From: Pseudonocardiaceae bacterium
GTDB taxonomy: Bacteria > Actinomycetota > Actinomycetes > Mycobacteriales > Pseudonocardiaceae
DNA: 61,475 nt
Direction of reading: 5' to 3'
Assembly (NCBI GenBank): GCA_036521655.1
Contig: DATDHI010000209.1
Coordinates: 1-61,475 of the forward strand
The position numbers were made by a program, and so were the translations under genes. The notes under the pieces are model-generated. The model ran no database searches. It had not been told where the DNA came from and worked only from the letters and a program-made list of their open reading frames with translations. Each line of letters begins with the position of its first letter. Position 1 is the first letter of the stretch. Below are positions 15,296 through 44,151 of the stretch, in pieces.

Positions 15296-15427
15296 CGCTC
15301 GACCTCCTCCTGCCCTCGCCGGTCACGCTCCTCACTGTGTACATGTGTGAAGCCCCCGGGTTGGTCACCCACAGCATCGACAGCTTTGAATGGTTCTCAC
15401 GCCGGGATCCGGGGCACGATCGAGGGT

Positions 15428-17176
15428 TCACTGGGCGCGGAGGTAAGCGATTCGTTCTTCGAGCTGCTCGGCGGTGGCCATTGCGGTTGGGGGGCCGCCG
15501 CAGGCGGTGCGGACCTCGGCGTGGATCGCGCCGTGCGAGTGGCCGGTGCGGTGGTGCGCCATCGCGACCAGGGTGTTGAGCTCCCGGCGCAGCCCAGCGA
15601 GACGCTCCCGCACGGTCGGTGGCCGGGCCGCAGCAGGGGCTGGGGGAGCCACCGAGACTGCGGCATGCCGGGCCGAGGCACGGTCGAGCTGCTGTTCCTG
15701 GCGCCGCCGCAGCAGCGCCCGCATCTGGTCGGGCGCAAGCAATCCGGGCAGCCCGAGATAGTCCTGCTCGTCCTCGGTGGTGGCGAAGGCAGCCGTGCCG
15801 AACGAGGAGCCGTCGTAGATCACCTGGTCCAGTTCGGCGTCGGCTCCCAGCGCGGTGAACGCGGGCTCCTGATCGCCGGGCTCGTCGCGTTGCGCGTTGG
15901 CCTGCGCGAGCAGCTCGTCGTCCCAGCCCTCCTCGGCCCGGTGAGGTGCGCCGAGCACGTGATCGCGCTGCTTTTCGAGCTCGCTGGCCAACCCCAGCAG
16001 CACCGGCACGCTGGGGAGGAACACAGTCGCGGTCTCGCCTGGCCGCCTGGCCCGGACGAAGCGGCCCACGGCCTGGGCGAAGTACAGCGGGGTGGCCGCC
16101 GATGTGGCGTAGACCCCGACCGCCAGCCGGGGGACGTCGACGCCCTCAGACACCATCCGGACCGCCACCAGCCAGCGCTCGTCGGAGTCGGCGAACGCGG
16201 CGATCCGCCGGGAGGCGGCCGGGTCGTCAGACAGCACCAGCACCGGTTCGCGCCCGGTGATGCCGGCCAGGATCGCCGCGTAAGCCCGGGCGGCGGCGTG
16301 GTCGGTGGCGATCACCAAGCCGGCCGCGTCAGGCAGGCCGCCGACCCGGAGCTGGGCGAGTCTGGTGTCGGCGGCGGCGAGCACAACGGGCACCCACTCC
16401 CCCGCTGGATCGAGCGCCGTGCGCCAGGCCCGGGCGGTGTGCTCGGCGGTGAGCGGCTCCCCCAGCCGCGCCGAGAACTCCTCCCCGGCGCTGGTCCGCC
16501 AGCGAGCCTCCCCGGAGTAGGCGAGGAACACCACCGGCCGCACCACGCCATCGGCCAGCGCCTCGGAGTAGCCGTAGGAGTGGTCAGCGGCGGAACGCAA
16601 GGCACCGGCGGCGTCCGGTTCGTAGCTGATGAACGGGATCGGCGTGTCATCGCTGCGAAACGGGGTACCGGTCAAAGCCAGCCTGCGCGCCGCCGGGGTG
16701 AACGCCTCCCGAACCCCGTCCCCCCAGCTCTTGGCGTCCCCGGCGTGGTGGATCTCGTCCAGCACCACCAGCGTGCGGCGCCCCTCGGTGCGCACCCGGT
16801 GCAGGGCCGGGTGGGCCGCGACCTGCGCGTAGGTGACCACCACGCCGTGGTAGTCGCGGGAGGTGGCCCCCACGGTGTTGCTGAACTCCGGGTCCAGCGC
16901 CAGATCCACCTCGGCGGCGGCGACCGCCCACTGGTGCTTAAGGTGCTCGGTGGGGGTGACCACCGTCACCGCGTGCACGGTCCGGTGGGCCAGCAGCTCC
17001 GCTGCCACCCGCAACGCGAACGCCGTCTTGCCCGCCCCCGGCGTGGCCACCGTGAGGAAATCCTGCGGCCCTGTGGCCAGGTAGCGCCCCAGCGCCCGGC
17101 GCTGCCAGGCGCGCAGCGGCCTACGTGCGGGAGCGGCGTCGGGGGCGGTCGCTGCAGGGTGGGACACGGCGGGCAC
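15428..17176 (-). CDS. SF2 DEAD/DEAH-box helicase (Res/SSL2-like)
   Basis: 582 aa with Walker A ATPGAGKT, DEAH-like VVLDEIHHAG, LALTGTPFRSD and VRMVSEGVDVPRL. Confidence 0.85.
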   Translation of the reverse strand: MPAVSHPAATAPDAAPARRPLRAWQRRALGRYLATGPQDFLTVATPGAGKTAFALRVAAELLAHRTVHAVTVVTPTEHLKHQWAVAAAEVDLALDPEFSNTVGATSRDYHGVVVTYAQVAAHPALHRVRTEGRRTLVVLDEIHHAGDAKSWGDGVREAFTPAARRLALTGTPFRSDDTPIPFISYEPDAAGALRSAADHSYGYSEALADGVVRPVVFLAYSGEARWRTSAGEEFSARLGEPLTAEHTARAWRTALDPAGEWVPVVLAAADTRLAQLRVGGLPDAAGLVIATDHAAARAYAAILAGITGREPVLVLSDDPAASRRIAAFADSDERWLVAVRMVSEGVDVPRLAVGVYATSAATPLYFAQAVGRFVRARRPGETATVFLPSVPVLLGLASELEKQRDHVLGAPHRAEEGWDDELLAQANAQRDEPGDQEPAFTALGADAELDQVIYDGSSFGTAAFATTEDEQDYLGLPGLLAPDQMRALLRRRQEQQLDRASARHAAVSVAPPAPAAARPPTVRERLAGLRRELNTLVAMAHHRTGHSHGAIHAEVRTACGGPPTAMATAEQLEERIAYLRAQ

Positions 17177-17239
17177 GGTACCTGCCCCGGCGGGTCCTGC
17201 TGCGCACGATCCGGCCTATGGACCATCCTGGGAGGCGAC

Positions 17240-18331
17240 ATGGATTCCGACTCCGACGCCTGCGCGGGCCCCGAGTTCGCCGTGGCCGAGCCCGCCCGCG
17301 CTGCCGAGCCTGCCAGCGACGGGCCTGCCGCTGGCGAGCGAACCCGGCGCGCCCCGATCCACCTGATCTCGCGGACCGCCAGCAGGGCCTGGGACGACAG
17401 CTTCGTCTCGATGTCCGCCCAGACGGCGTTCTGGATGACCCTGTCGCTGCCGCCCCTGCTGCTGGGGTTGCTGGGTAGCCTCGGATTCGTCGCGAGCTGG
17501 TTCGGCCCTGACACGGTCGCGGCGGCGCAGCACGAGATCCTGAACTTCAGCGCCACGGTGTTCAGCGCCGACGTCGTCAACCAGATCATCCGGCCGACGG
17601 TGACCGACATCCTCACTCGGGGGCACAGCTCGATCGTCTCGGTCGGGTTTGTGATCTCACTGTGGGCGGGCTCCTCAGCACTGGCCTCCCTGGTGGATTC
17701 AATTACGGCCGCCTACCGGCAGCACACCGTGCGCAACCCGGTGTGGCAGCGGCTGTTCGCTCTGCTGCTCTACGTGGTGGCGCTGATCGGGTCGGTGCTC
17801 GTGCTGCCGGTGACGGCGCTGGGCCCGGACCTGATCCCCGAGGTGTTCCCCGGGTCGGTCCGCTCCACGGTGGCCCAGCTGGTCAGCGTGTTCTACTACC
17901 CCGGGCTCGGCGTCCTGCTGATGGTCGGCCTGGCCACCCTGTACAAGGTTGCGCTACCCAAGAAGCTCCCATGGCACCGCGGGCTGCCCGGGGCTGTGCT
18001 GGCGATGGTGGTATTCCTGGTGACCAGCACCGGGCTGCGGCTCTACATCTCCTGGGTGACCAGCACCGGGTACAGCTACGGCGCGTTGGCAACCCCGATC
18101 GCCTACCTGCTGTTCTCGTTCTTCATCGCGATGGCGATCGTGCTGGGTGCGGAGTTCAACAGCGCGATCGAGGAAATCTGGCCGGCCCGGGCGACCCGCC
18201 GGGACCGCCGGCGCAGGCAGACGGAGAGCTTCGCAACTCGGGTTCGTGCGGACGCGACCGGCCTCGCACTGCCCCGTAACGGGGGCCGCCCTTCGGTGAA
18301 CCGTTCGGATCGCGCAGGCGAATCACGCTAG
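17240..18331 (+). CDS. YihY/BrkB-family membrane protein (Rv2707-like)
   Basis: Only the last ~363 codons of track ORF 14906..18331. ATG 17240 has RBS GGGAGG. Multi-TM: FWMTLSLPPLLLGLLGSLGF, IVSVGFVISLWAGSSA, LLFSFFIAMAIVLGAEFN. Confidence 0.8.
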   Translation: MDSDSDACAGPEFAVAEPARAAEPASDGPAAGERTRRAPIHLISRTASRAWDDSFVSMSAQTAFWMTLSLPPLLLGLLGSLGFVASWFGPDTVAAAQHEILNFSATVFSADVVNQIIRPTVTDILTRGHSSIVSVGFVISLWAGSSALASLVDSITAAYRQHTVRNPVWQRLFALLLYVVALIGSVLVLPVTALGPDLIPEVFPGSVRSTVAQLVSVFYYPGLGVLLMVGLATLYKVALPKKLPWHRGLPGAVLAMVVFLVTSTGLRLYISWVTSTGYSYGALATPIAYLLFSFFIAMAIVLGAEFNSAIEEIWPARATRRDRRRRQTESFATRVRADATGLALPRNGGRPSVNRSDRAGESR

Positions 18332-18348: not shown

Positions 18349-19251
18349 GTGACGACCGAACAGGGGTGCGGAGTGTCCTTCGATATCGCGACCTACAGCG
18401 CCAACGCCCGCCGGGTGGTGGACGCCGACGTCGACTACACCGCCTTCGAACGCCTGCCGCTGGCCGAGGCGACGCTGCGGACGCTGCAGTACATGTCCGA
18501 CGTGGAGAGCCACACCATCTGCTACCTGCGGGACCTGCTGGTCACCCCGTCACACCAGGACCCGGAGATCACGACGTTCCTCACGATGTGGGCCTACGAG
18601 GAGTTCTGGCACGGCGAGGTGCTGGACAAGGTGCTGGCTGCGCACGGCAGGGACGTGGGCCCCGAGCGGATCCGCCGCATCCGGCTCGCCCAGGGCCGCG
18701 GCGACCGGTTCGCCCCGATCTACCAGGCACTGGCAGCCAATATTGCCGGGGACGATTTCATCGCCGTGCACATGACGTTCGGCGTGATCAACGAGTGGTC
18801 CACCTTCGCCGCCTACGGGCGGTTGCTGGCCAAGGAGGACCACCCCGAGTTGGCCAAGGTGATCGGCCGCATCCAGCGCCAAGAGAGCCGCCACGTGGCC
18901 TTCTACGGCAGCCAGGCGCGGGAGCGGCTGGAGCGGTCGCGCCCGGCCAGGCTGCTGACCCGGCTCGCGCTCCGGACCTTCTGGACGCCGGTCGGGTCGG
19001 GGATCATGCCGCGTGCCGAGACCGCATTCGTGCTGCGCTACTTGATGGGCGGTACCGACGGCGGCCGGCTGATCCGGCAGATCGACGAGAAGATCGACCG
19101 GCTGCCCGGCCTGGCCGGGCTGAACCTGGTCAGCCGCGCCGCGGCAAGCTTCGACCTCGAGCCGGGCGCCACCGGGTACGGCTCAGGTCACATCCAGCGG
19201 ATGGGGGCCCTGCTGTGGTCCCTGCTGCGCTCTCCCTCGCTGAGCCGCTGA
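18349..19251 (+). CDS. ferritin-like di-iron protein (acyl-ACP-desaturase-like)
   Basis: 300 aa with two ExxH motifs, YEEFWH and RQESRH, in helical context. Alternative start at GTG 18373. The 3' end overlaps larE by 69 nt. Confidence 0.65.
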   Translation: MTTEQGCGVSFDIATYSANARRVVDADVDYTAFERLPLAEATLRTLQYMSDVESHTICYLRDLLVTPSHQDPEITTFLTMWAYEEFWHGEVLDKVLAAHGRDVGPERIRRIRLAQGRGDRFAPIYQALAANIAGDDFIAVHMTFGVINEWSTFAAYGRLLAKEDHPELAKVIGRIQRQESRHVAFYGSQARERLERSRPARLLTRLALRTFWTPVGSGIMPRAETAFVLRYLMGGTDGGRLIRQIDEKIDRLPGLAGLNLVSRAAASFDLEPGATGYGSGHIQRMGALLWSLLRSPSLSR

Positions 19252-20085
19252 GCCGCTGAGTGAACCCGAATGGTAGGAGGCCAGGTCACCGTGTCCCGCG
19301 AGACCCGCTTGCGCGACCCGGGCCAGCAGCCCCGTCCGGGTCGCCGCCGAAACCCGGTCGAGGGCAGCCTGGTCGAGCTCTACCCGGAACCCGGAGTGGC
19401 CCAGCAGCCGGACCCGCAGGTCGCGCAGCGGCACCCGGTGCTCGGCGAGATACCCGCAGGCGGCCAGCTCGGCCCGCTCCACCAGCGCCAGCCGGTCCAC
19501 CGTCACCGGTATTCCGACCGCGATCCGGGAGGCGAGGCACGGGGTGCTCGGCTTGTCCCGGACCGCCAGATTCCAATGTCCGGCAAGCAAACGCACCACA
19601 TCCTTGGTTGCGCCCACCTCGGCGAGCGGCTCGCACACGCCGAGCTCCGCCGCTGCCCGCAGACCCGGGCGGTGAGCGGCGCGGCGGTCATCGAGGTGGG
19701 TGCCGGTGGCCACCTGGACGAACCCGCGCTGCTGCGCCAGACCGCGCACCGCGGCGAGCACGGTCTGCTTGCAGAAGTAGCAACGATCGCCGGCATTGGC
19801 CCGGTAGCCCGGGTCCGCGAGTTCGTCGGTGCGCAGCACCACCAGCTCCGCCCCGATCTGCCCGGCCACGCGGCGGGCATTCGCCAACTCGGCGCGCGCC
19901 AGGCTGGGCGAGTCAGCGATGGCGGCCAGCACTGCTCCTGCGCCCAATGCCCGCACGGCCGCAGCCAGCACCACAGCGGAGTCAACCCCTCCGGAGAAGG
20001 CCACCACCAGCCCACCCGGCCGGCCGAGCTGGCGCAGCAGCTCGAGGAGTGCTGCCGCGTCGGCAGGGGTATCCGGGGTGTGCAT
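19183..20085 (-). CDS. larE: NPN-cofactor sulfur insertase LarE (PP-loop ATPase)
   Basis: Track ORF trimmed to ATG 20085 (MHTPDTPADAAALL). PP-loop VVAFSGGVDSAV, plus GDRCYFCKQ and KPSTPCLASRI. Confidence 0.8.
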   Translation of the reverse strand: MHTPDTPADAAALLELLRQLGRPGGLVVAFSGGVDSAVVLAAAVRALGAGAVLAAIADSPSLARAELANARRVAGQIGAELVVLRTDELADPGYRANAGDRCYFCKQTVLAAVRGLAQQRGFVQVATGTHLDDRRAAHRPGLRAAAELGVCEPLAEVGATKDVVRLLAGHWNLAVRDKPSTPCLASRIAVGIPVTVDRLALVERAELAACGYLAEHRVPLRDLRVRLLGHSGFRVELDQAALDRVSAATRTGLLARVAQAGLAGHGDLASYHSGSLSGSAAQRGRAQQGPQQGPHPLDVT

Positions 20086-20142
20086 CGTCAACGATCCTCG
20101 CATGACCCGAGCAGCACCGGAGGGCGTGACATAGTCGGCACC

Positions 20143-20877
20143 GTGGTCACCCCAGCCCCGGAACCCGCCCCAGCACCACTGCGCGACCGGATCAGCGAGG
20201 TTGGCGGCATCGCCCACCTGGATCTGGACCGCAGGCGACGAACCGCCGTGCCGGAGGCCGTCTTCGCACAAGGCAAGACCGAGGAGCAGACCCGGCAGCT
20301 GCTGACCGCGCAGCGGCGCGGTGAACCCGGATTCCCGGCACTGGCCACCCGGTGCCCTGACGCGGTGCTGCAGCGGGCGCCAGCCTGGTTCCCGGCGGAG
20401 CCGGTGCTGGCAGACCCGGTCGGGCGCACCCTCATCGTCGGGCCACTACCCCTGGACCGCGGGCTCGTCGCCGTGCTCACCGGGGGCACCTCGGACCTGC
20501 CGGTGGCTCGCGAGGCCGTCGCTACCCTGCAGGCGCTCGGCGCCGGGCACCGGTTGATCGCCGACGTCGGGGTGGCGGGCCTGGCGCGGTTACTGGCGCA
20601 CCTCGACGAGCTGTCCGCGGCCGACTGCGTGATCGCCATCGCCGGTATGGAGGGCACGCTGCCCGGCGTGGTGGCCGGGCTGATCCGGGCACCTGTGGTC
20701 GCCGTGCCCACCAGCGTGGGCTACGGGGTGAGCGCCGGCGGCCACGTCGCCGCGGCGGCGATGCTCGCCACCTGCGCACCGGGGGTGACGGTGGTCAATA
20801 TCGACAACGGGTTCGGCGCGGCGGCACACGCCGTCAAGATCGTCGCCCGGGTGCACGGTGAACCCGGTGCGCAGTGA
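20143..20877 (+). CDS. larB: NPN-cofactor biosynthesis protein LarB (PurE-like NaAD carboxylase/hydrolase)
   Basis: Last 244 codons of track ORF 19270..20877, starting at GTG 20143. DLDRRRRTAVPEAVFAQGKT, LTGGTSDLPVAREA and IAIAGMEGTLPGVVAG. Divergent from larE with a 57-nt gap. Confidence 0.8.
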   Translation: MVTPAPEPAPAPLRDRISEVGGIAHLDLDRRRRTAVPEAVFAQGKTEEQTRQLLTAQRRGEPGFPALATRCPDAVLQRAPAWFPAEPVLADPVGRTLIVGPLPLDRGLVAVLTGGTSDLPVAREAVATLQALGAGHRLIADVGVAGLARLLAHLDELSAADCVIAIAGMEGTLPGVVAGLIRAPVVAVPTSVGYGVSAGGHVAAAAMLATCAPGVTVVNIDNGFGAAAHAVKIVARVHGEPGAQ

Positions 20878-20930
20878 CCCAGGTGCGTGCGATGGCCCAG
20901 GTGCGTGCGATGACCCAGGTGCGTGCGATG
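20877..20930 (+). repeat. 18-bp tandem repeat x3 at the larB/larC junction
   Basis: The unit (A/G)CCCAGGTGCGTGCGATG occurs three times head to tail, each ending in an in-frame ATG (20892, 20910, 20928). It would encode TQVRAM x3 if translated from GTG 20874. Confidence 0.9.
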
Positions 20931-22166
20931 ACTGAGCCCCGAGCGGCGTACCTGGACTGCACAGCGGGCGTGGCAGGCGACATGCTCCTCGGTGCGCTGC
21001 TCGACGCCGGTGCCGACCTCACCGCGGTACGCCGTGCGGTCGGCTCGCTGGGAGTGCCCGGTCTGGACGTCGACCTCGAGCGAACCCGGCGCTGCGGGTT
21101 GCGCTGCGCCCGGGCAGTGGTCACGACACCACCCGGGGACCAGCCGACCCGGGCGCTGTCCGAGGTGCTGGCTGCGATCGGCGCCGCGCGGCTGAGTCCG
21201 CCCGCTGCCCAGCTGGCGGCGGGCACCTTCCGGCTGCTCGCCGGCGCTGAGGCTGCGGTGCACGGCGTCCCCGCCGAGCGGGTGCACTTCCACGAGGTGG
21301 GGGCCGCCGACGCGCTCGCCGACGTCGTCGGCACCGCGGTCGCCGCGCAGCAACTGGGTCTGCTCGCCGACGGCACCGTGCTGACCTGCTCGGCACTCGC
21401 CGCCGGCAGTGGCACGGCGCGCAGCGCGCATGGGACGATCCCGGTCCCCGCGCCTGCCGTGCTGCAGATCGTGGCCGAGCGGGGTCTGTCGCTGACTGGC
21501 GGGCACCTGGCCGGGGAGCGCACCACGCCCACCGGAGCGGCCCTGGTCGCGACCCTGGCCACGCCCGGCCCGCTGCCGCCGATGGCCGTCGAGGCGGTCG
21601 GCTGTGGCGCGGGGCGCCAGGACCCCGCGGAGCAGCCCAACATCACCCGGTTGGTGATCGGCAGGCCGCTGGCGCAGGGGGCAGGGCCGGGTCCTGCCGA
21701 GCCGGTCACCGTGGTGGAGACCACCGTCGACGATCTCGACCCGCAGCTGTGGCCGCAGGTGCTGGTCGCCGTGCGCGCAGCCGGGGCGTGGGACTGCTGG
21801 ACCACGGCGACGATCGGCCGCCACGGCAGGCCCGGGCAGGTGCTCACCGCGGTGTGCGCTGACGCGGTCCGGCCGGCTGTGGTGGATGCGCTGTTCCGGC
21901 ACAGCACCACGCTGGGCGTACGGTGGGCGCATTGGCAGCGCAGCACGCTGCCGCGAACGGCAGTGCCCGTGCCGGTCGGCCCGCCCGGGGCCGAGCAGGA
22001 GATCGCCATCAAGGTTGCCGCCCGCCCGGGAGGGCAGCGGACGGCAAAGCCTGAGCTCGCTGACGCCGAGCGGGTCGCCCAGGCGCTTGGCTGGCCACTG
22101 CGCCGGGTGTACGAGGTGGCGCTGTCGGCCTACCACCGGGACCACCCCGATGGCGCGAATGACTAG
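20928..22166 (+). CDS. larC: nickel insertion protein LarC (DUF111)
   Basis: AYLDCTAGVAGDMLLGALLDAGAD is a typical LarC N-terminus. I chose the last ATG of the repeat as the start. GTG 20874 (GTGA overlap with the larB stop) is also possible. Confidence 0.8.
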   Translation: MTEPRAAYLDCTAGVAGDMLLGALLDAGADLTAVRRAVGSLGVPGLDVDLERTRRCGLRCARAVVTTPPGDQPTRALSEVLAAIGAARLSPPAAQLAAGTFRLLAGAEAAVHGVPAERVHFHEVGAADALADVVGTAVAAQQLGLLADGTVLTCSALAAGSGTARSAHGTIPVPAPAVLQIVAERGLSLTGGHLAGERTTPTGAALVATLATPGPLPPMAVEAVGCGAGRQDPAEQPNITRLVIGRPLAQGAGPGPAEPVTVVETTVDDLDPQLWPQVLVAVRAAGAWDCWTTATIGRHGRPGQVLTAVCADAVRPAVVDALFRHSTTLGVRWAHWQRSTLPRTAVPVPVGPPGAEQEIAIKVAARPGGQRTAKPELADAERVAQALGWPLRRVYEVALSAYHRDHPDGAND

Positions 22167-22193
22167 CCTCACCGGCAGCCCGAGAGGGAGGAC

Positions 22194-24536
22194 ATGACCT
22201 GCGACGAGCTCGCCGGGCGTCATGTGCTGCTCACCGGGGCCACCGGGTTCCTGGGCCAGGCGACCCTGGAGCGGCTGCTGTCCAGCTACCCGGATACCCG
22301 CGTCTCGGTGCTGATCCGGCCCCGCGGCGGGCGCAGTGCCGCCGACCGCCTGCGAGTGCTGCTACGCAAGAACGTGTTCCGCCCGCTGGGTGAGCGCCTC
22401 GGCGAGGGTGGGCTGGCCCGGCTGGTGCGCGAACGGGTCACCGTCATCGAGGGCGACCTCGGCTCGATTATGCTGCCAGGCGACCTCGACGTGGTGATCC
22501 ACGGTGCGTCCACGGTGTCGTTCGACCCGCCGGTCGACGAGGCCTTCCAGACCAACGTCGCGGGCGTGGCGACCCTCTACCAGGCCCTGGCGGGCGCCGG
22601 TGGCTCGCCGCACGTGGTGCACGTCTCCACCGCCTACGTGGCAGGCACCCGCAAGGGGGTGGTCACCGAGGCTGCCTTGGACCACGACGTGGACTGGCGC
22701 CTGGAGCTGGAGATGGCCCTGGCGGCCCGCGGGGACGTGGAGCGGGACTCCCGGCGCCCGGAGGTGCTGGCGCGGGCGCTGGCCCAAGCGGGCGAGCAGC
22801 ACGCCAAGGCGGGCCCGCAGTCCACCGCCGCCGACGCAGAGCGGCTCCGCACCGAGTGGGTCACCCGGCGGCTGGTGGACTACGGGCGTAACCGGGCGCG
22901 CTGCCTGGGCTGGCCGGACGTGTACACCCTGACCAAGGCACTGGGCGAGCGGGTCGCCGAGCAACTGTGGGCGCACGGCGGCCGCCCATTGTCGGTGGTC
23001 CGCCCGGCGATCGTGGAGAGCGCCCTGGCGCACCCGTACCCGGGGTGGATCGACGGCTTCAAGATGGCCGACCCGCTGATCATCGCCTACGGCCGGGGGG
23101 TCCTGCGTGAGTTTCCCGGGCTGCCCGACTCCGTGCTCGACGTCATCCCGGTGGACCTGGTGGTCAACGCGACGCTTGCGGCCGCCGCCCGGCCACCCTC
23201 CACCGGGCCGGCCTACCTGCACGTCAGCTCCGGGGCGAGTAACCCGCTGACCTTCCGGACCATGTACGTGCTGTGCCGGGAGTACTTCGGCAACCACCCC
23301 ATGCCCGATGGCGACCGCGGCCACATCGAGCCGCCGACCTGGCGGTTCCCCGGCAGCCAGCAGGTGGAGCTGACGCTGCGCGCCGGGGAGCGGGCCGCTG
23401 CGCTGGCGGAGAAGGTGCTGCTGGCGTTGCCGCCGTCGAAGCGATCCCAGGACTGGCTGACCAGCCTGAGCCGCCAGCAGCAGGACCTGGCCCAGCTTCG
23501 GGAGTACGCCGACCTCTACGGCGTGTACACCCGCGCCGAGGTGATCTATGACGACAGCCGGCTGCGGGAGCTGCAGGCCACGCTGCCCACCGACCGGGCC
23601 CTAGACCATGGCTTCGACCCCACCGTCATCGACTGGCGGACCTACCTGCTCGACGTGCACTGCCCGGCGATCACCGCCACGGTCCGCCGGGCGGGCCAGC
23701 GGCGGGTCCGCTCCAGCGCCGGCCGTCGCGGCGCACCGCCGTTGGAGCTGCCCGAGCGCACCGACGTGGCCGCGGTGTTCGACCTGGAAGGCACCATCGT
23801 GGCCTCCAACGTCGTCGAGTCGTATCTGTGGACCCGGCTGGCCACGCTGCCCCGCTCCGGCTGGCTGCACGAGTTCGCCGATCTGGCCCGCTGCGCCCCC
23901 CGCTACCTCTACGCCGAGCGCCGCGACCGCGGTGAGCTGCTGCGCGACTTCCTGCGCCGCTACGCGGGGGTACGGGCCGACGATCTGCGGGTGCTGGCCA
24001 CCGAGGTGCTTGGCGACGCGCTGCTGCACCGGGTGATGCCCGAGGCCACCCGCCAGATCCGCCGTCATCGGGCTGCCGGGCACCGCACCGTGCTGATCAC
24101 CGGCGCGGTCGACATGCATGTGGAGCCGCTGTCCGTGCTGTTCGACGAGGTGGTGGCCAGCCGGATGCACGAAGCCGACGGCGTGCTCACCGGATTCCTG
24201 GCCGCGCCGCCCTTGGTCGACGAGGCGCGCGCGGCGTGGCTGCGGCAGTACGCCCAGCGCAACGGCCTGCATCTGGACCGCTCCTACGCCTACGCCGACA
24301 GCTACTCCGACCGCCCGCTGCTGGAGGCCGTCGGGCACCCGCATGTGGTCAACCCGGACGGCCAGCTGTTCCGGCACGCCCGGCGACACCGCTGGGTGGT
24401 GCACCGCTGGGGTGCGCACACCGGCGGGCTGCTCGACGTGATGCTCGAGGTGGCCCGCGACGACGTTAGTGGCACTGTTCGTGGCAATGCCAGTCGCGGC
24501 CGTGTCCGTGGCCGGGCCAGGGGTGAGTGGACGTGA
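22194..24536 (+). CDS. fatty acyl-CoA/ACP reductase (NAD_binding_4 SDR) fused to a HAD-IB hydrolase domain
   Basis: 780 aa. N-terminal half: LLTGATGFLGQATLERLL, STAYVAG and YTLTKALGE (YxxxK). C-terminal part from about residue 530: AAVFDLEGTIVASN, VLITGAVD, YADSYSDRPLLEAVGHPHVVNPD. Confidence 0.8.
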   Translation: MTCDELAGRHVLLTGATGFLGQATLERLLSSYPDTRVSVLIRPRGGRSAADRLRVLLRKNVFRPLGERLGEGGLARLVRERVTVIEGDLGSIMLPGDLDVVIHGASTVSFDPPVDEAFQTNVAGVATLYQALAGAGGSPHVVHVSTAYVAGTRKGVVTEAALDHDVDWRLELEMALAARGDVERDSRRPEVLARALAQAGEQHAKAGPQSTAADAERLRTEWVTRRLVDYGRNRARCLGWPDVYTLTKALGERVAEQLWAHGGRPLSVVRPAIVESALAHPYPGWIDGFKMADPLIIAYGRGVLREFPGLPDSVLDVIPVDLVVNATLAAAARPPSTGPAYLHVSSGASNPLTFRTMYVLCREYFGNHPMPDGDRGHIEPPTWRFPGSQQVELTLRAGERAAALAEKVLLALPPSKRSQDWLTSLSRQQQDLAQLREYADLYGVYTRAEVIYDDSRLRELQATLPTDRALDHGFDPTVIDWRTYLLDVHCPAITATVRRAGQRRVRSSAGRRGAPPLELPERTDVAAVFDLEGTIVASNVVESYLWTRLATLPRSGWLHEFADLARCAPRYLYAERRDRGELLRDFLRRYAGVRADDLRVLATEVLGDALLHRVMPEATRQIRRHRAAGHRTVLITGAVDMHVEPLSVLFDEVVASRMHEADGVLTGFLAAPPLVDEARAAWLRQYAQRNGLHLDRSYAYADSYSDRPLLEAVGHPHVVNPDGQLFRHARRHRWVVHRWGAHTGGLLDVMLEVARDDVSGTVRGNASRGRVRGRARGEWT

Positions 24537-25744
24537 GTCTGGCCCTGCAGTACCACCGCTGCGTTGGGCGCTACTTCGCTGCCCGCGCGGTCAGCAGCAC
24601 CAGCGCCGGACGTCCGCTGGTGGGCGCGCTGGCCGGCAACGTGGCGCCGCTGCGGCTGGTGGAGCAGGTCGACCCGAGTCCGGCCGGGGAGTCGTGGAGC
24701 CGGGTCGAGCCGGTGCTGTCCGGGATCTGCGGCTCCGACCTCGGCCTGCTCACCGGCCGTAGCTCGCCCTACCTCGGACCCTTGACGTCGATGCCGTTCG
24801 TGCCCGGCCACGAGGTCGTCGGGCGCACCCTCGACGACCTGCCCGGCCTGCCCCAGGGCAGCCGGGTGGTGATCGACCCGGTGCTGAGGTGCGCCACGCG
24901 CGGCGTGCCGCCCTGCCCGGCCTGCATCGCCGGGGACACCAGCCGCTGCGACCACATCATCACCGGCAGGCTGGCCGCCGGGCTGCAGACCGGGTTCTGC
25001 GCCGACACCGGGGGTGGCTGGAGCCGCCGGATGATCGCCCATGCCAGCCAGCTGCACCCGGTGCCCGACCCGATGCCCGATGAGGTCGCGGTGCTGGTGG
25101 AGCCGCTGGCCTGCGCGGTGCACGCGGCACGCCGGGTCCCGGTGCCGCCAGGTGCATCGGTGCTCGTGATCGGGGCCGGCACGGTGGGACTGCTCACTGT
25201 GCTCGCGCTGCGCAGGCTCACCCCGGCCGGTGAGATCTGTGTGGTAGCCAAGCACGCCCACCAGGCCGACCGGGCACGTGAGCTGGGAGCCACCCAGGTG
25301 ATCAGCGCCGACGGGACCGCCAGGGCGTTACGCCGCAGCACCGGAGCCCTGCTGGTCGAGCCCGAGCTCGGCGCCGGCTACCTGCTCGGCGGGATGGACC
25401 TCGCCTTCGAGTGCACCGGGGGGGCGAGCGGGCTGGACACCGCGCTGCGAGCACTGCGCGCCGGGGGCACCGTGATCGCCTCGGGGATGCCCTCGGGCGG
25501 GGTGGACCTCACCCCCCTGTGGTACCGGGAACTGCACCTGGTGGGGGCCTACGCCTCGGCGGTGGGGGACGAACCCAGCCTCGGCGATTTCCCCGCGGCC
25601 ATCGCACTGGCGGGATCGGCGCCCCTGGACGGTTACGTTGACACGAAATACCCGCTGCAACGCTGGCGTGAGGCACTCGATCACGCTGCCGCGGCCGGGC
25701 GGCTGGGCAGCATCAAGGTCGTCTTCGCCCCGGGCCGAGGGTAA
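24533..25744 (+). CDS. zinc-type alcohol dehydrogenase (MDR family)
   Basis: GTG 24533 overlaps the upstream TGA (GTGA); GTG 24527 is also possible. SGICGSDLG, PFVPGHEVVG and VIGAGTVGLL. Confidence 0.8.
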   Translation: MSLALQYHRCVGRYFAARAVSSTSAGRPLVGALAGNVAPLRLVEQVDPSPAGESWSRVEPVLSGICGSDLGLLTGRSSPYLGPLTSMPFVPGHEVVGRTLDDLPGLPQGSRVVIDPVLRCATRGVPPCPACIAGDTSRCDHIITGRLAAGLQTGFCADTGGGWSRRMIAHASQLHPVPDPMPDEVAVLVEPLACAVHAARRVPVPPGASVLVIGAGTVGLLTVLALRRLTPAGEICVVAKHAHQADRARELGATQVISADGTARALRRSTGALLVEPELGAGYLLGGMDLAFECTGGASGLDTALRALRAGGTVIASGMPSGGVDLTPLWYRELHLVGAYASAVGDEPSLGDFPAAIALAGSAPLDGYVDTKYPLQRWREALDHAAAAGRLGSIKVVFAPGRG

Positions 25745-25759
25745 AGAGCAGGAGAGAGT

Positions 25760-27334
25760 GTGGGCAGACCAGGTTTCGTGCTGGACGTCGACGAGCGGAC
25801 CCCGCCGCTGCTGATGCACGAGGGGGAGGGGTTCCGGCTGGAGCGCCTGCCCATGGGCAGCCGGGTTATCTACCCACCGGACTCGCTGCCGGGCATCGTC
25901 AACCTCGAGGCCGCCATCCGGCACGCGCTGGTGCACCCGCACGGCAGCGACCCGCTGCAGCAGCTGCTGCGCCGCGGGATGCGGCTGACCATCGTGTTCG
26001 ATGATCTGTCCCTGCCGCTGCCACCGATGCGCACCCCGGACGTCCGGCAGCGAGTGATCGAGCAGGTGCTGGAGATGGCTGCCGCAGCCGGCGTCGACGA
26101 CGTCGAGCTGATCGCCGCCAACTCGCTGCACCGGCGGATGACCCCCGCCGAGCTCAAGCGCACCGTCGGTGAGCGGGTGTTCCGCGCCTTCCACCCCGGC
26201 GCCCTGCGCAACCACGACGCCGAAGACCCCGACAACCTCGCCCACCTGGGCACCACGCCGCACGGCGAGGACGTGGAGATCAACCGCCGGGCCGCCGAGA
26301 GCGACCTGGTGGTCTACGTCAACATCACGCTCACCGCGATGAACGGCGGCTCGAAGTCGGTGGCGGTGGGGCTGGCCAGCTACGCCAGCCTGCGCCACCA
26401 CCACAACGTGCACACGCTGCGGCACTCGCGCTCGTTCAACGATCCGCCGAACTCCGCGATGCACCAGTCCTACGACCGGATGGCCGATCTGATCGGTGGG
26501 CATGTGCCGGTGTTCACCATCGAGACCACGCTGAACAACAGCACCTTCCCCACCGCGTTGCGCTTCCTCACCCGCCGCGAGTGGGAGTGGAACCTCACCG
26601 ACCAGGCCGGCTACCTGGCCGTCAAGCGGAGCAACGACCTGGCCACCTCGAAGCTGCGGCACCGGATCTGGCAGTCCACCGAGGCGCCCTACGGCGTGAC
26701 CGGGGTACACGCCGGCGCGCCGAGCGAGGTGCACCCACACACCCTGGCCGCGGTGCACCGCCAGCAGCTCACCGAGGTCGACGGGCAGGCCGACGTGGCG
26801 GTCTTCGGGTTGCCCTACATCTGCCCCTACAACGTCAACTCGATCATGAACCCGATCCTGGTGATGTCCCTGGGGCTCGGTTACTTCTTCAACCTCTACC
26901 GGGGCAAGCCCATCGTCCGCCAGGGCGGGGTGGCGATCTTCTACCACCCGATGCCACCCGAGTTCCACCCGGTGCACCACCCGAGCTATATCGATTTCTA
27001 CGAGCTGCTGGCCGAGACCACCGACCCGGTGATGCTGGAGACCAAGTACGAGAAGCAGTTCGCGACCGATCCGTGGTACATCCACCTGTACCGGACCAGC
27101 TACGCCTACCACGGTGTGCACCCGTTCTACATGTGGTACTGGGGGGCGCACGCGATGCAGCACCTGGGCGACGTCATCTTCGTCGGGGGCGACCGGTCGA
27201 CCACTGCCCGGCTCGGCTTCCGCGCCGCGTCCAGCCTGGCCGACGCGCTGGAGCTGGCTTCCGGCACCGTGGGCCGCGACCCGCAGATCAGCTACCTGCA
27301 CGCCCCGCCGATGGTGCTGGCAGACGTGCGATGA
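25760..27334 (+). CDS. LarA-family (DUF2088, lactate-racemase-like) NPN-dependent enzyme, divergent 524-aa form
   Basis: RBS AGGAGAGAG before GTG 25760. RLTIVFDDLSLPLPP, ELIAANSLHRRMTPAEL and VYVNITLTAMNGGSKSVAVGL..SLRHHHN align by eye with the LarA motifs DITRP, GTHR, PHFFAGFSGGRK and the Ni-ligand His. Confidence 0.7.
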   Translation: MGRPGFVLDVDERTPPLLMHEGEGFRLERLPMGSRVIYPPDSLPGIVNLEAAIRHALVHPHGSDPLQQLLRRGMRLTIVFDDLSLPLPPMRTPDVRQRVIEQVLEMAAAAGVDDVELIAANSLHRRMTPAELKRTVGERVFRAFHPGALRNHDAEDPDNLAHLGTTPHGEDVEINRRAAESDLVVYVNITLTAMNGGSKSVAVGLASYASLRHHHNVHTLRHSRSFNDPPNSAMHQSYDRMADLIGGHVPVFTIETTLNNSTFPTALRFLTRREWEWNLTDQAGYLAVKRSNDLATSKLRHRIWQSTEAPYGVTGVHAGAPSEVHPHTLAAVHRQQLTEVDGQADVAVFGLPYICPYNVNSIMNPILVMSLGLGYFFNLYRGKPIVRQGGVAIFYHPMPPEFHPVHHPSYIDFYELLAETTDPVMLETKYEKQFATDPWYIHLYRTSYAYHGVHPFYMWYWGAHAMQHLGDVIFVGGDRSTTARLGFRAASSLADALELASGTVGRDPQISYLHAPPMVLADVR

Positions 27335-28269
27335 GCAGCCTGCGCGAGGAGTTGCGGCTGCTGCGGCACGGCCGGGACTGGCGGGGCCGGGCCCGGGTGC
27401 CGCGCTCGGCGCGGCGTTGGGCGCTCCCGGATGACGGGGACGGGTTCCCCACTGAGTGGGCCCGCACCGCTGCGGCCGGAGTGCTGCGCAGCGCCCTGCA
27501 GCGAGGCGTGCTCAAGCCGGTGACCTGGAGCCAGACCCGGCCGGTGGTGCACGGCCGGGAGTACCTGGAGAGCGTCCGCGGGCCGGCGATCTTCATCGCC
27601 AACCACTCCAGCCATCTGGACACGCCGCTGATCCTGGGTGCGCTGCCACCGCGGATCACCGAGAACCTCGCGGTCGGGGCGGCCGCCGACTATTTCTACG
27701 ACTCCCGGGCGCTGGCTGCGGTCACCACGCTGTTGTTCAACACCTTCCCGGTGGACCGGCGGGCACCGCGGCGAAGTCGCAGTCTGGCCGCCGACCTCGT
27801 CGACGAAGGCTGGAGCCTGCTGCTCTACCCGGAGGGCGGCCGCTCGGTGGAGGGCTTGCTGACCGGTTTCAAGCTGGGTGCCGCGCAACTGTGCGCGAAG
27901 AAGCGGGTGCCCGCGGTGCCGATCGCGCTGCGCGGCACGTTCGCCGCGATGCCCCGCGGCCGGCGCTGGCCTCTTCCCGGTCGGCCCCGGGTCACCGTCC
28001 GGATCGGGCGACCGCTGTGCATCAGACCGGACGAGGGGGTGCCTGATTTCCGCACCAGGCTGGTGCGCGCCGTAGCGACCCTCTGGGCGGAGGACGATCT
28101 CGGCTGGTACGGCGCCCTGAGGGCGGCTGCCGACGACTCGCTGGCGTTACCCTCGGGCGTGAGCGGCGTGCTGCCGACCACCGTGGCGGGCCAGCCTGCT
28201 GAGGGCCGCGACATGGCTCCGTGGCGCCGGATCTGGGAAGCCAGCCGCCCACCCGCCAATGACAGCTGA
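27331..28269 (+). CDS. PlsC-type (lysophospholipid) acyltransferase
   Basis: ATG 27331 overlaps the upstream TGA (ATGA). Last 312 codons of track ORF 26581..28269. HxxxxD motif IANHSSHLDTP and LLLYPEGGRS. Confidence 0.8.
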   Translation: MSSLREELRLLRHGRDWRGRARVPRSARRWALPDDGDGFPTEWARTAAAGVLRSALQRGVLKPVTWSQTRPVVHGREYLESVRGPAIFIANHSSHLDTPLILGALPPRITENLAVGAAADYFYDSRALAAVTTLLFNTFPVDRRAPRRSRSLAADLVDEGWSLLLYPEGGRSVEGLLTGFKLGAAQLCAKKRVPAVPIALRGTFAAMPRGRRWPLPGRPRVTVRIGRPLCIRPDEGVPDFRTRLVRAVATLWAEDDLGWYGALRAAADDSLALPSGVSGVLPTTVAGQPAEGRDMAPWRRIWEASRPPANDS

Positions 28270-29556: not shown

Positions 29557-30783
29557 TCAGGCCGCCGGCACGGTGCTGGCCGCCCGCCCCAGCGGTGGCT
29601 GGAGCCGGAAGTAGGCATCACCGAGGATCCGGCGCTGCAGCAGGCGGCTGCGATGCATGGCCCGGTAAATGGAGGTGCGCAGCAGGACCGCGGGCGGGGC
29701 GTCGAAGGTGAACATCCACTCCTGGCGCAGCTGAAGGCGGCGGGCCTTCGCCACGTCGCCCTGCCGGATGCGCTGGAATTCCCGCAGCGCCGCAGCCATC
29801 GGCTGGGAGGTCCCCAGCGCGCCGTCGACCAGTTTCGCCAGGGTCACGCCGTCGATGAGCGCGTGGTTGACGCCCTGGCCGAGGATCGGCGTCAGCGTAT
29901 GCGCCGCATCACCCACGAGGACCAGGCCCGGCCGGGACCACTGCGGCACGACCGTGGTGAAGATGTCCAGCATCGAGGTGTCCTTCCACCCGCTGATATG
30001 CGTCCGGAGCGGAGCGCTCAGCTCGGGCGCAAGCTCGTCAAGCCGCGCGTGCAGCGCACCGATTCCCTGCCGGCGCAGGTCCTTGAGCCCGCCCTTGGGG
30101 ATGTTGAAGCCGACCCGCACCGAGTCCGGGTAGGTAGGGACGAACACCGCATGCCGGCTCCCGTTCAACGCGATCCGGTAGCTGCCGGCCCATTCCACCG
30201 GGCACGGCAGCCTCAACCACACCACATCACGCGCCAGGGGCAGCATCCGGTGCTGCAGCCCCGACATGGCGAGCACCTTGCTGAAGCGGCCGTCCGCACC
30301 GACCGTGAGCTCAGCGCGGACCTCCTGGGGACCTTCGGGCCCGAGGTAGCACACACCGCGCACCACACCGCCCTCCTCGACCAACCTGGTGACGTTGGCG
30401 GGCTGGCGCAGCTCGAACCCGCCGTGCTGAGCCGCCGCGCCGGCGAGCACCCGCAGCAGGGTGGGCTGCGGTATCTCCATCGGGTACGGGCAGGCGTAGG
30501 GAAAGACATCGAAGTCCACCCGCATCGCGGTCCGGCCACCCTCGGTCATCTCCAGCCGCCGGGTGACCAGCGCACCGATGGCCGTGATCTCCTCTAGCAA
30601 CCCCAACCGGTCCAGCAACCACACCCCATCCGGTGAGATCGACTCTCCACGGAAGGACCGCTGGAAATGTGGGGCCTTCTCCAGCACCACGACCCGCCGG
30701 CCGCGGCGGGCCAGGGCCAATGCGAGAGTGAGCCCGGCAGGTCCGCCGCCGACGATGCACACATCCACGCTGGTCACATTCAT
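29557..30783 (-). CDS. FAD-dependent monooxygenase-fold protein (group A, UbiH-like)
   Basis: Track ORF trimmed to ATG 30783 (ATGA overlap with the TEII stop). DVCIVGGGPAGLTLALALARRG, GADGRFS and LVLVGDAAHTLTPILGQG. Confidence 0.8.
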   Translation of the reverse strand: MNVTSVDVCIVGGGPAGLTLALALARRGRRVVVLEKAPHFQRSFRGESISPDGVWLLDRLGLLEEITAIGALVTRRLEMTEGGRTAMRVDFDVFPYACPYPMEIPQPTLLRVLAGAAAQHGGFELRQPANVTRLVEEGGVVRGVCYLGPEGPQEVRAELTVGADGRFSKVLAMSGLQHRMLPLARDVVWLRLPCPVEWAGSYRIALNGSRHAVFVPTYPDSVRVGFNIPKGGLKDLRRQGIGALHARLDELAPELSAPLRTHISGWKDTSMLDIFTTVVPQWSRPGLVLVGDAAHTLTPILGQGVNHALIDGVTLAKLVDGALGTSQPMAAALREFQRIRQGDVAKARRLQLRQEWMFTFDAPPAVLLRTSIYRAMHRSRLLQRRILGDAYFRLQPPLGRAASTVPAA

Positions 30784-31562
30784 CGCTGGCACCTCTCTTC
30801 TTCCCCGCTGGCCAGCGGGAGACTTAGTCGGCCGAAGCCCCGGGCCGCTCCCACTACCTCGCTCACCGCGGTGAGCAGGCCCGAGCGGAGTTCTTGCACG
30901 AGGAAGTGCCCACCGTCGAGCATCCGCAGCTCGAACCGGTTCGCGGTGTACCCGCGCCAGGCCGCGAGATGCTCGTGGCTCACGAGCGGGTCCCGCATCC
31001 CACCGAACGCATAGATCGGGCATGGCAACGGCCTGCCATGAGCCGGCACCCCGCTGCGGCATACGCTCAGGTCGTCGCGCAGCCGCGCCATCAGCGGGAT
31101 GAGCCACTCCGACCGCTGCAGCAGCAGTGCCGGCAGGCCGCCGATCTCATGCAGGCGCTGTGCCAGCTCATCGTCATCGACGGCTTCGGGCACCAGCGCG
31201 GAGCACTGTACGTGCGGCGCGGCACACGCGGTGGCCAGCAGCGCCTGAGGTGGGCGGCAGCCGGCGGCCAGCCGGTGTACCGCGACGCTGTAGGCGACCA
31301 GGGCGCCCATGCTGTGCCCGAACAGGATGTGCGGCTGCTCCAGAAGCTCGGCCAGCTCACCGGCCAGCAACCGGGTCAGCTCCCCCAGGTCGCGCTGGCG
31401 AGGCTCCCGGATCCGGCTCTCCCGGCCGGGCAACTGCACGGCGCGCACCTGCACTGGCGGCCCCGGACACAACGACCGCAGCGATCCCGGCCAGTCGCGG
31501 AACGCTGATGCACCGCCGCCAGCATGATGGAAGCAGACCAGCGTGGCAGGCTCGGGGGTCAC
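30780..31562 (-). CDS. type II thioesterase
   Basis: LVCFHHAGGGASAFRDW and the nucleophile motif LFGHSMGALVAY. Start chosen at GTG 31562 (GTGA overlap with the upstream stop). GTG 31571 is an alternative. Confidence 0.8.
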   Translation of the reverse strand: MTPEPATLVCFHHAGGGASAFRDWPGSLRSLCPGPPVQVRAVQLPGRESRIREPRQRDLGELTRLLAGELAELLEQPHILFGHSMGALVAYSVAVHRLAAGCRPPQALLATACAAPHVQCSALVPEAVDDDELAQRLHEIGGLPALLLQRSEWLIPLMARLRDDLSVCRSGVPAHGRPLPCPIYAFGGMRDPLVSHEHLAAWRGYTANRFELRMLDGGHFLVQELRSGLLTAVSEVVGAARGFGRLSLPLASGEEERCQR

Positions 31563-40623: not shown

Positions 40624-40660
40624 GATCATCGTCCTCCTGGTGTCGGGCTCGGCCGCCGGA

Positions 40661-44148: not shown

Positions 44149-44151
44149 GGC

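Follow-up and report, generated by a model that had tools for sequence, protein, structure and literature searches.

What does a complete set of genes for the cofactor nickel-pincer nucleotide (NPN) do beside genes of lipid type? The question is raised by a 61,475-nucleotide stretch of DNA from a Pseudonocardiaceae bacterium (contig DATDHI010000209.1 of assembly GCA_036521655.1, hereafter the window; GC content about 70%), in which larE lies divergent from larB and larC, and these are followed by genes for a fatty acyl reductase (FAR) fused to a HAD phosphatase, a Zn-dependent dehydrogenase (Zn-ADH), a LarA homologue (LarAH) and a PlsC-type acyltransferase. Judged from the genes and their relatives, we consider it somewhat more probable than an even chance, at roughly 55%, that this block is an actinobacterial counterpart of the elb ether-lipid cassette of myxobacteria and depends on the nickel-pincer cofactor. 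All genes named in a first-pass annotation of this DNA were confirmed in the window by Pfam and NCBIfam, and the nearest relatives are Pseudonocardiales metagenome-assembled genomes (MAGs), in which the LarA homologue is 92–93% identical. The block consists of the following features:

19183..20085, minus strand: larE, for the ATP-dependent sulfur insertase that takes part in making the nickel-pincer cofactor (TIGR00268, 233.5 bits; cut-off 150)
20086..20142, no strand: divergent intergenic region between larE and larB, presumed shared promoter region (from the start-codon coordinates)
20143..20877, plus strand: larB, nicotinic acid adenine dinucleotide carboxylase/hydrolase (NF033503, 226.6 bits, cut-off 175; Pfam AIRC)
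20874..22166, plus strand: larC, nickel-inserting cyclometallase with LarC1 and LarC2 fused, 430 amino acids (Pfam Ni_insertion, 361 bits)
22194..24536, plus strand: FAR-HAD fusion, 780 amino acids (NAD_binding_4, 164 bits; HAD, 110 bits)
24527..25744, plus strand: Zn-ADH of the polyol/ketose-reductase type (ADH_N and ADH_zinc_N)
25760..27334, plus strand: LarAH of group 14, 524 amino acids, presumed client of the nickel-pincer cofactor (Lar_N; NF052592)
27331..28269, plus strand: PlsC/AGPAT-type acyltransferase (PF01553, 62.7 bits; start ATG 27331)

The plus-strand genes are closely packed. The larB and larC genes overlap by 4 nucleotides, the FAR-HAD gene starts 27 nucleotides after larC behind the Shine-Dalgarno sequence GGGAGG, the Zn-ADH gene overlaps its predecessor by 4 nucleotides (GTGA, with start GTG 24533) or by 10 (GTG 24527), the LarAH gene follows after 15 nucleotides with an AGGAG Shine-Dalgarno sequence, and LarAH and PlsC share an ATGA overlap of 4 nucleotides. 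Given these junctions of -4 to +27 nucleotides and the Shine-Dalgarno sequences, larB-larC-FAR/HAD-ADH-LarAH-PlsC looks like a single six-gene operon divergent from larE, and our best reading is that larE and the six plus-strand genes constitute one functional unit. The first-pass annotation had described the divergent larE, the 27- and 15-nucleotide gaps and the GTGA and ATGA overlaps correctly, as both the TIGR00268 match with the start codons and the coordinates with the sequence itself demonstrate. It had let the block begin at 18349, which is the start of a plus-strand ferritin-like gene treated below and not of larE (19183–20085). A scan for promoters and terminators based on the sigma-70 consensus between 18 and 29.5 kb gave no match, which says little at 70% GC.

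Which known pathway does this unit resemble? In Myxococcus xanthus, elbABCDE corresponds to MXAN_1531 to MXAN_1527 (MIBiG BGC0000871; Lorenzen et al. 2014, as cited in PMC9131029 and PMC13012113). The elbB gene encodes a HAD protein, elbC a protein of "unknown function", elbD a fusion of FAR, acyl-CoA synthetase (ACS), acyl carrier protein (ACP) and AGPAT, and elbE a short-chain dehydrogenase/reductase (SDR) (PMC9131029). Since elbA to elbE run from MXAN_1531 to MXAN_1527 and elbD carries the locus tag MXAN_1528 in the literature, MXAN_1529 is elbC. The same MXAN_1529 is listed in Dataset S1 of Desguin et al. 2020 (PMC7583248) as a LarAH of group 15, the sister of group 14, and the LarAH of the window is 50% identical to it over 387 amino acids (E = 7e-138).

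Other Myxococcales extend this comparison. One homologue (44% identity) is encoded directly upstream of a protein of 1561 amino acids that combines the domains NAD_binding_4, AMP-binding, PP-binding and PF01553 and precedes an SDR, and two Myxococcales MAG loci carry HAD, LarAH, a FAR-Sterile-AMP-PP-AT megaprotein (AT, acyltransferase) and an SDR in this order. Because their gene and domain order equals that of elbB to elbE in M. xanthus, these loci were assigned the elb architecture. Comparison of the window proteins with those of the Myxococcales loci by BLASTP gave:

LarAH against the protein in the ElbC position: 48% identity over about 520 amino acids (E = 1e-175)
HAD domain against the protein in the ElbB position (220 amino acids, PF12710 in both): 38–40% over about 213–215 amino acids (E = 3e-44)
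FAR domain against the N-terminus of the ElbD-like protein: 29% over about 545 amino acids (E = 2e-52)
PlsC against the AT domain of the ElbD-like protein: 37–41% over about 135 amino acids (E = 2e-21)

All parts of the cassette except Zn-ADH therefore have an elb homologue, namely HAD (ElbB), LarAH (ElbC) and FAR and acyltransferase (the ElbD domains), and LarAH is the most conserved among them with 48% identity versus 29–41% for the other parts. A third order is found in Chloroflexota, where Zn-ADH, LarAH, a DAGK-type lipid kinase, a FAR-AT fusion, HAD and PlsY follow one another; here the Zn-ADH, encoded directly before the LarAH gene, is 43% identical to that of the window over its full length and LarAH is 55% identical. 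The existence of three fusion patterns, FAR-HAD, FAR-AT and FAR-ACS-ACP-AT, argues that the five activities form one pathway.

The nature of this pathway is indicated by the genetics of M. xanthus. Disruption of elbD strongly decreases alkyl as well as vinyl ether lipids, the ElbD route being the predominant and the AGPS route the minor one (PMC9131029). According to the review, an i15:0 aldehyde was detected in the wild type and not in elbD mutants, and fatty alcohols were not detected; an insertion in elbB, with a polar effect on elbC, could be rescued by elbD only in part (PMC9131029). The steps by which the fatty acid becomes an alkyl ether lipid are given as unknown in the same review (PMC9131029).

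The first-pass annotation had considered this combination of genes as not described, which holds for its function only. Desguin et al. 2020 defined the LarAH groups and tabulated their gene contexts (Table S1), with an 88% association of group 14 with AGPAT (COG0204), HAD (COG0560) and COG1063 (Zn-ADH) and 50% with a thioester reductase, a group 15 context of HAD, COG0451 and long-chain acyl-CoA synthetase, and a group 16 context of AGPAT and HAD; groups 14, 15 and 16 are all listed there as "unknown function" (PMC7583248). The association of LarAH group 14 with lipid genes is thus already published, a Frankia member has been assayed, an NCBIfam model exists and the elb operon has been tied to ether lipids. 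However, the identity of ElbC as a LarAH is stated in no paper that we found. Our full-text literature searches returned no paper joining nickel-pincer, LarA or lactate racemase with lipids, ether lipids or acyltransferases and none naming MXAN_1529, and ElbC appeared only in the review PMC9131029, as a protein of "unknown function".

Is the LarA homologue equipped to use the cofactor? The protein matches the NCBIfam model NF052592 (LarAH_14_15_16, named "NPN-dependent hydroxyacid isomerase, LarAH14/15/16 family") from end to end, scoring 899 bits (cut-off 740) with residues 6–524 on profile positions 1–520, and its Lar_N domain is recognized by PF09861 (E = 1e-41). The AlphaFold2 (AF2) model has a pLDDT of 91.7. 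All 19 Foldseek matches with E <= 0.001 are LarA-family structures or the Thermotoga maritima structural-genomics protein 4nar, and the best folds are those of the single-His LarA enzymes 9q3k and 9q3j (TM-score 0.77–0.84).

Functional residues were mapped by HMMER alignments and Dataset S1 of Desguin et al., and their invariance was read from our alignments A1 and A3. Four residues of LarA are retained: Asp72 (ribose binding) as Asp82, His108 (first catalytic His) as His124 in the motif LHRR, Lys184 (NPN tether) as Lys199 in GGxKS, which aligns with Lys195 of LarA_Sp, and His200 (Ni ligand) as His215, located 16 residues past Lys199 as in LarA. Two Frankia group-14 rows of Dataset S1 have Lys and His at the positions of Lys184 and His200 as well. 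None of the four retained residues varies among the actinobacterial members and the 43–49%-identical non-actinobacterial ones (Myxococcota and others), nor does a set of His, Tyr and Trp residues of the C-terminal domain. Other positions have changed. The carboxylate-binding Arg75 is replaced by Leu85 (Ile in the two Frankia rows), the loop carrying the second catalytic His, His174, is four residues shorter, contains no His and appears as a gap in Dataset S1, and the carboxylate-binding Lys298 corresponds to Asn according to the group-14 rows of Dataset S1. Groups 14 and 15 have also been described as lacking a His174 equivalent by Gatreddi et al. 2025 (PMC12611868). As far as can be read from its residues, the protein has the profile of an enzyme that binds NPN and takes a hydride from a carbinol, rather than that of a two-base racemase with carboxylate binding.

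These residues bear on two explanations that stay closer to known LarA chemistry. The first-pass annotation had proposed an NPN-dependent stereo-inversion or hydride-shuttle step; in a stereo-inversion, LarAH would invert C2 of a glycerol phosphate or a lysolipid (of the G3P to G1P type) to give glycerolipids of unusual configuration. Every LarA enzyme characterized so far racemizes or epimerizes a carbinol carbon, and the partner enzymes of the cassette handle substrates of the glycerol-phosphate type. Nevertheless, the members of groups 14 and 15 have all lost the second His, which reprotonation from the opposite face would need, and it is ether lipids and not stereo-inverted lipids to which the homologous operon has been linked, so that we regard stereo-inversion as very unlikely and as the less plausible chemistry for this enzyme. 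LarAH might also be an ordinary NPN-dependent 2-hydroxyacid isomerase acting on a long-chain or phosphorylated acid, such as a 2-hydroxy fatty acid or phosphoglycerate, and leading to hydroxy- or diol-type lipids. This would agree with the NCBIfam family name, with the LarA fold and with the ferritin-like di-metal protein, a possible lipid hydroxylase, that flanks the block in some loci. However, stereo-inversion of a hydroxyacid is unlikely because LarAH lacks the second His as well as the Arg and Lys that bind the carboxylate. In addition, the purified Frankia LarAH14 was inactive in seven hydroxyacid racemase/epimerase assays, with lactate, hydroxyisovalerate, hydroxyisocaproate, malate, hydroxyglutarate, phenyllactate and gluconate (PMC7583248), and the di-metal gene is rare among the related loci (see below). 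Taken together, a hydroxyacid isomerase is quite improbable, and the ether-lipid reading is preferred here. The earlier placement of the LarA homologue in a lipid-type pathway instead of the metabolism of lactate or small hydroxyacids is supported, and of the substrates named there, a "glycerolipid, fatty alcohol or hydroxy-lipid", the lipid character stands, while the link to ether lipids had been missed.

How far is the arrangement conserved? A scan of one genome per GTDB species yielded at least 600 matching stretches. The best 80, all from Actinomycetota, were fetched and their neighbourhoods probed by tblastn with the window proteins, presence counts being limited to loci with enough flanking DNA. 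These loci come from Pseudonocardiales, Micromonospora, Actinomadura, Streptomyces, Frankia, Kribbella, Nocardioides and Acidimicrobiales, and the order FAR, HAD, ADH, LarAH, PlsC is colinear in essentially all of them. FAR was present in 73 of 74 loci, HAD in 74/74, ADH in 71/74 and PlsC in 75/75. At least one lar gene lies within 10 kb of the cassette in 29 of the 80 loci, and 26 have all three. As their placement relative to the cassette varies (upstream divergent, upstream co-directional or downstream convergent), the adjacency appears to have been kept through rearrangements. De novo clustering of all open reading frames (ORFs) of the 80 loci revealed no widely conserved neighbour besides the cassette and larBCE, all other clusters being found in at most 11 loci. 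The survey thus supports both a cassette that is conserved across Actinomycetota and shuffled or fused in Chloroflexota and Myxococcota, and a physical link between this cassette and the cofactor toolkit.

Reduced versions of the cassette occur in Streptomyces. Streptomyces sp. NPDC000070 (locus L034, 6127–12330) carries larE-larB-larC-HAD-LarAH-PlsC without FAR and ADH, resembling the group 16 context of Desguin et al.; two further loci (L029 and L030) keep FAR-HAD and lack ADH, and another (L037) retains a match to FAR, its ADH-like match being weak and distant. These variants point to HAD, LarAH and acyltransferase as the minimal module. The long LarA clade also has members in Asgard archaea with 31–34% identity, in a Lokiarchaeota MAG (L081, 8001–9539) and in Heimdallarchaeota (P0223). 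The idea that these homologues might be a link across the "lipid divide" was dropped, the gene context in Lokiarchaeota being non-lipid (ADP-ribosylglycohydrolase, GH38 mannosidase).

What might the LarA homologue do in an ether-lipid pathway? We tentatively propose a hydride shuttle. FAR would convert an acyl thioester to a fatty aldehyde, and LarAH with its NPN would act on the glycerol-phosphate backbone. His124 would deprotonate the C2 hydroxyl of sn-glycerol-3-phosphate (G3P) and the C2 hydride would be taken by NPN; the C1 hydroxyl would add to the aldehyde to form a hemiacetal, which would lose water to an oxocarbenium ion; and the hydride would be delivered from NPN-H to the former aldehyde carbon, yielding 1-O-alkyl-dihydroxyacetone phosphate (1-O-alkyl-DHAP). 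The net reaction, RCHO + G3P -> 1-O-alkyl-DHAP + H2O, would be a redox-neutral "reductive etherification", by which LarAH would fill the role of AGPS with no need for a flavin. Zn-ADH, whose place would be taken by ElbE in myxobacteria, would then reduce the C2 ketone and restore the hydroxyl, a role suggested by its nearest characterized relatives, which reduce ketones beside CH2OH groups. Finally, PlsC would acylate sn-2 and HAD would remove the phosphate, the product being a 1-O-alkyl(-2-acyl)glycerol lipid.

This scheme is favoured because it gives every conserved part a role and would explain the single His, the lost carboxylate site and the independence from AGPS. The retention of a separate ketoreductase, be it Zn-ADH or the SDR ElbE, fits a ketone product that needs re-reduction. 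Nonetheless, the specific hydride-shuttle step is held with much less confidence than the assignment of the cassette, and the same reserve applies to its generalization, namely that ElbC and the LarAH of groups 14, 15 and 16 may be the missing ether-bond-forming enzyme of an AGPS-free aerobic bacterial route, acting via a C2-hydride shuttle to an aldehyde-derived oxocarbenium ion.

A different chemistry within the same pathway would be an exchange of acyl for alkyl. LarAH would transiently oxidize C2 of 1-acyl-glycerol-3-phosphate (lysophosphatidic acid) to the acyl-DHAP level; C1 would thereby be activated, the acyl group swapped for a fatty alcohol made by FAR (with ADH), and the hydride returned to C2, in a manner resembling S-adenosylhomocysteine hydrolase and AGPS. 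Such hidden-redox logic suits the NPN cofactor and needs only one acid/base His, the FAR domain aligns over its full length with a fatty acyl-CoA reductase of the alcohol-forming type, and the Streptomyces locus without FAR and ADH indicates that the trio of LarAH, HAD and PlsC can stand alone. On the other hand, it was the elbD-dependent aldehyde and not fatty alcohols that was detected in M. xanthus, the near-universal polyol-type ketoreductase would be left without a needed role, and AGPS requires a covalent flavin adduct for which no NPN equivalent is known. We therefore regard the exchange as rather unlikely and the hydride shuttle as the better candidate.

Several observations weigh against an NPN-dependent elb-type cassette of this kind. 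No NPN enzyme offers a precedent for the proposed chemistry, and the genetics of M. xanthus covers elbD and the elbB insertion but not ElbC singly. The ACS and ACP domains of ElbD are absent from the cassette of the window, in which no AMP-binding or PP-binding domain was found; the nearest ones belong to a separate cluster of polyketide synthase (PKS) type on the other strand at 37–46 kb. ElbE is an SDR, whereas the window, like Chloroflexota, has a Zn-ADH of the MDR (medium-chain dehydrogenase/reductase) superfamily. From sponge symbionts, elb-like clusters holding only elbD and elbB homologues have been reported (2026 preprint), and ElbC is therefore not tied to every elbD. The reviews of bacterial ether-lipid producers that we consulted do not name the actinomycete genera found here, and our literature search gave no report from actinomycetes. 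Routine fatty-acid methyl-ester profiling would presumably miss ether lipids.

The distant relatives of LarAH (30–41% identity) count on the same side, given that they have lost the Lys and/or the catalytic His. Two of these deficient proteins, P0137 and P0155, still adjoin FAR and HAD genes, so that the role of the family may not always be catalysis via a tethered NPN. The two (P0155, locus L087, 8001–9587; P0137, locus L089, 8001–9602) may be pseudo-enzymes or use the cofactor differently. Could LarAH/ElbC then be a non-catalytic scaffold, lipid-binding or regulatory subunit, with larBCE nearby for an unrelated client? Such deficient members and the elbD clusters devoid of elbC speak for it. 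However, none of the cofactor residues varies within the actinobacterial, Chloroflexota or myxobacterial clades, LarAH is the best conserved protein of the cassette, larBCE genes are adjacent in 29 of the 80 loci, and no candidate NPN client other than LarAH was seen among the window ORFs scanned. A non-catalytic role is accordingly given a low probability, and a catalytic LarAH within the ether-lipid cassette is retained as the preferred reading. The first-pass annotation had also noted the absence of a nickel transporter, a lactate permease and a Crp-type LarR, and none was present among the candidate ORFs of the 61-kb window scanned against Pfam.

The individual gene products agree with their assignments. 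LarE has the motifs SGGxDS and CxxC...C in its translation; the latter marks the catalytic [4Fe-4S] type of LarE as opposed to the sacrificial type (PMC9283937), and by this motif the LarE of the window is probably of the catalytic type. An alternative ATG of larE lies at 20103 within the enclosing ORF 19183–20271. A class-V aminotransferase of the cysteine-desulfurase type, encoded on the minus strand at 8621–10378, 9 kb upstream, could supply sulfur to a [4Fe-4S]-type LarE. For larB, GTG 20143 is the only start codon in range. LarC scores 171 bits for LarC1 (cut-off 90) and 97.6 for LarC2 (cut-off 50), with both TIGR00299 and NF052512 above their cut-offs. In the FAR-HAD fusion, the fatty acyl reductase spans amino acids 1 to about 500 and the HAD-IB phosphatase about 525–740. 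Residues 5–499 of the reductase align with the fatty acyl-CoA reductase PDB 7eoz (E = 4e-46), and the motifs GxxGxxG and YxxxK are visible in the translation. HAD motif I (23754–23790) reads FDLEGT; at Asp+2, the general acid/base of the window is Glu (DxEGT), as it is in 31 of the 75 related loci with a plus-strand HAD match, the other 44 having Asp (DxDGT). The nearest PDB entries of Zn-ADH, which starts at GTG 24527 or GTG 24533, are L-idonate 5-dehydrogenase, ketose reductase, sorbitol dehydrogenase and butanediol dehydrogenase. PlsC matches PDB 5kym (PlsC; E = 2e-14) and contains the motifs HX4D (NHSSHLD) and PEGG.

Does the gene on the left flank belong to the unit?

18349..19251, plus strand: ferritin-like di-metal carboxylate protein, peripheral and outside the conserved cassette

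This gene is convergent with larE, and the 3' ends of the two overlap by 69 nucleotides (19183–19251). Pfam FA_desaturase_2 is matched below its gathering score (E = 3.7e-4), homologues carry the source name "ferritin-like domain-containing protein", and the translation contains two ExxH motifs. In the AF2 model (pLDDT 85), the top folds are stearoyl-ACP (acyl-ACP) desaturase and the lipid-binding R2lox, with a TM-score of about 0.5. The gene described earlier as a di-iron desaturase-like flank is thus present, but the label is weak and the gene is not conserved. As a homologue occurs in 9 of the 80 loci only and the fold match is weak, its candidacy as a core part, either as plasmanyl desaturase or as an analogue of an aldehyde-deformylating enzyme, was rejected.

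To the right of the block, the PKS-type cluster extends from 29557 to 47079 on the minus strand, together with a SARP (BTAD) gene on the plus strand (46192–47079). It encodes a FAAL-like AMP-binding enzyme, two acyl-CoA dehydrogenase-like proteins, a KS-AT-ACP synthase of 989 amino acids and KAS III, as well as an unannotated 631-amino-acid ORF, a fragment of a 2-oxoacid-dehydrogenase-type acyltransferase, a PPTase, an FrsA-like esterase, a thioesterase and an FAD monooxygenase. The thioesterase, the FAD monooxygenase and the PKS genes were rejected as members of the unit, being encoded on the opposite strand, beyond the conserved genes for DUF3039 and DUF3099; homologues of the thioesterase and the FAD monooxygenase were found beside the cassette in none of the related loci. 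Elsewhere in the window, a stretch of low GC content (about 11900–17200; 0.63 versus about 0.71) may be an inserted element. It contains an unannotated 418-amino-acid ORF (11904–13160, minus strand) and a ResIII/DEAD helicase-like ORF (15428–17176, minus strand). ORF 14906–18331 (1141 amino acids) is drawn too long; its match to BrkB/YihY is confined to about the last 310 residues. At 57049–58949, an alpha/beta hydrolase gene overlaps a second PlsC-type gene (PF01553, 90.6 bits) by 4 nucleotides, a lipid-remodelling pair unrelated to the cassette.

What would follow from the assignment proposed here? NPN enzymology and the ether-lipid field describe one protein family, each as of unknown function and unconnected with the other, the latter within the only aerobic ether-lipid operon of bacteria that is backed by genetics. 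The junction of larB and larC with the cassette in one operon makes the connection between LarAH and ElbC explicit, and the operon suggests that ElbC is a nickel enzyme, offering a concrete hypothesis for ether-bond formation in the ElbD route. The finding amounts to a cluster of elb type that comes from a new phylum, arranges its domains in a new way and is joined to NPN genes. If the proposal is true, lipid biosynthesis and a non-racemase reaction, and with it a new reaction class, would be added to nickel-pincer chemistry, and the missing second histidine of the clade would be explained. Many soil actinomycetes, Chloroflexota and Myxococcota would further be expected to make ether lipids in a nickel-dependent way, and the genomes of at least about 600 species (the best 80 all Actinomycetota) would encode unrecognized potential producers of alkyl glycerol ethers. 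Even if the mechanism is wrong, the substrate space for purified LarAH14 is now defined, namely glycerol phosphate or DHAP derivatives together with fatty aldehyde or alcohol.

How does the locus compare with known systems? In common with elbABCDE of M. xanthus, it has tightly linked homologues of ElbB, ElbC, ElbD-FAR and ElbD-AGPAT and a ketoreductase of the NAD(P)H type. In contrast to elbABCDE, its FAR is fused to HAD and not to ACS-ACP-AT, the acyltransferase is a separate gene, and the SDRs ElbA and ElbE are replaced by a Zn-ADH. Furthermore, the cassette of the window is joined to larB-larC, faces larE and belongs to Actinomycetota. The eukaryotic, peroxisomal route with FAR1, GNPAT, AGPS and alkyl-DHAP reductase (PMC9131029) shares with it acyl reduction, acyl transfer by a PF01553 protein, reduction of a C2 ketone and dephosphorylation. 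However, the cassette has no flavoenzyme AGPS, a LarA-family protein occupies that logical slot, and the alkyl donor may be an aldehyde rather than an alcohol.

With LarA and the characterized LarAH racemases and epimerases (Sar, Mar1/2, Hgr, Plr and GntE1/2), the LarAH of the window shares the two-domain LarA fold (TM-score 0.55–0.66 when normalized to the query and 0.69–0.80 when normalized to the target), the equivalents of Asp72, His108, Lys184 and His200, and the linkage of its gene to larBCE. It differs from them by about 100 additional residues, the deletion in the His174 loop, the replacement of Arg75 by Leu/Ile and of Lys298 by Asn, and a lipid context instead of one of organic or sugar acids. 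The single-His enzymes LarA_Sp and LarA_Bw of group 17 (9q2u, 9q3k, 9q3j; PMC12611868) are its best match in the PDB (phmmer E = 1e-33). They are likewise about 500 amino acids long with one catalytic His, and a phosphorylated substrate other than a hydroxyacid is suspected for them too. However, His174 is replaced by Asn in these enzymes while the loop is four residues shorter in the LarAH of the window, the identity is only 22–23%, and their gene context is that of glycolysis and sugar transport. Finally, NphT (PMC13524815), although of an unrelated aldo-keto-reductase fold, acting on sugar substrates and having no link to lipids, provides the precedent of an NPN enzyme that moves a hydride between different carbons or molecules.

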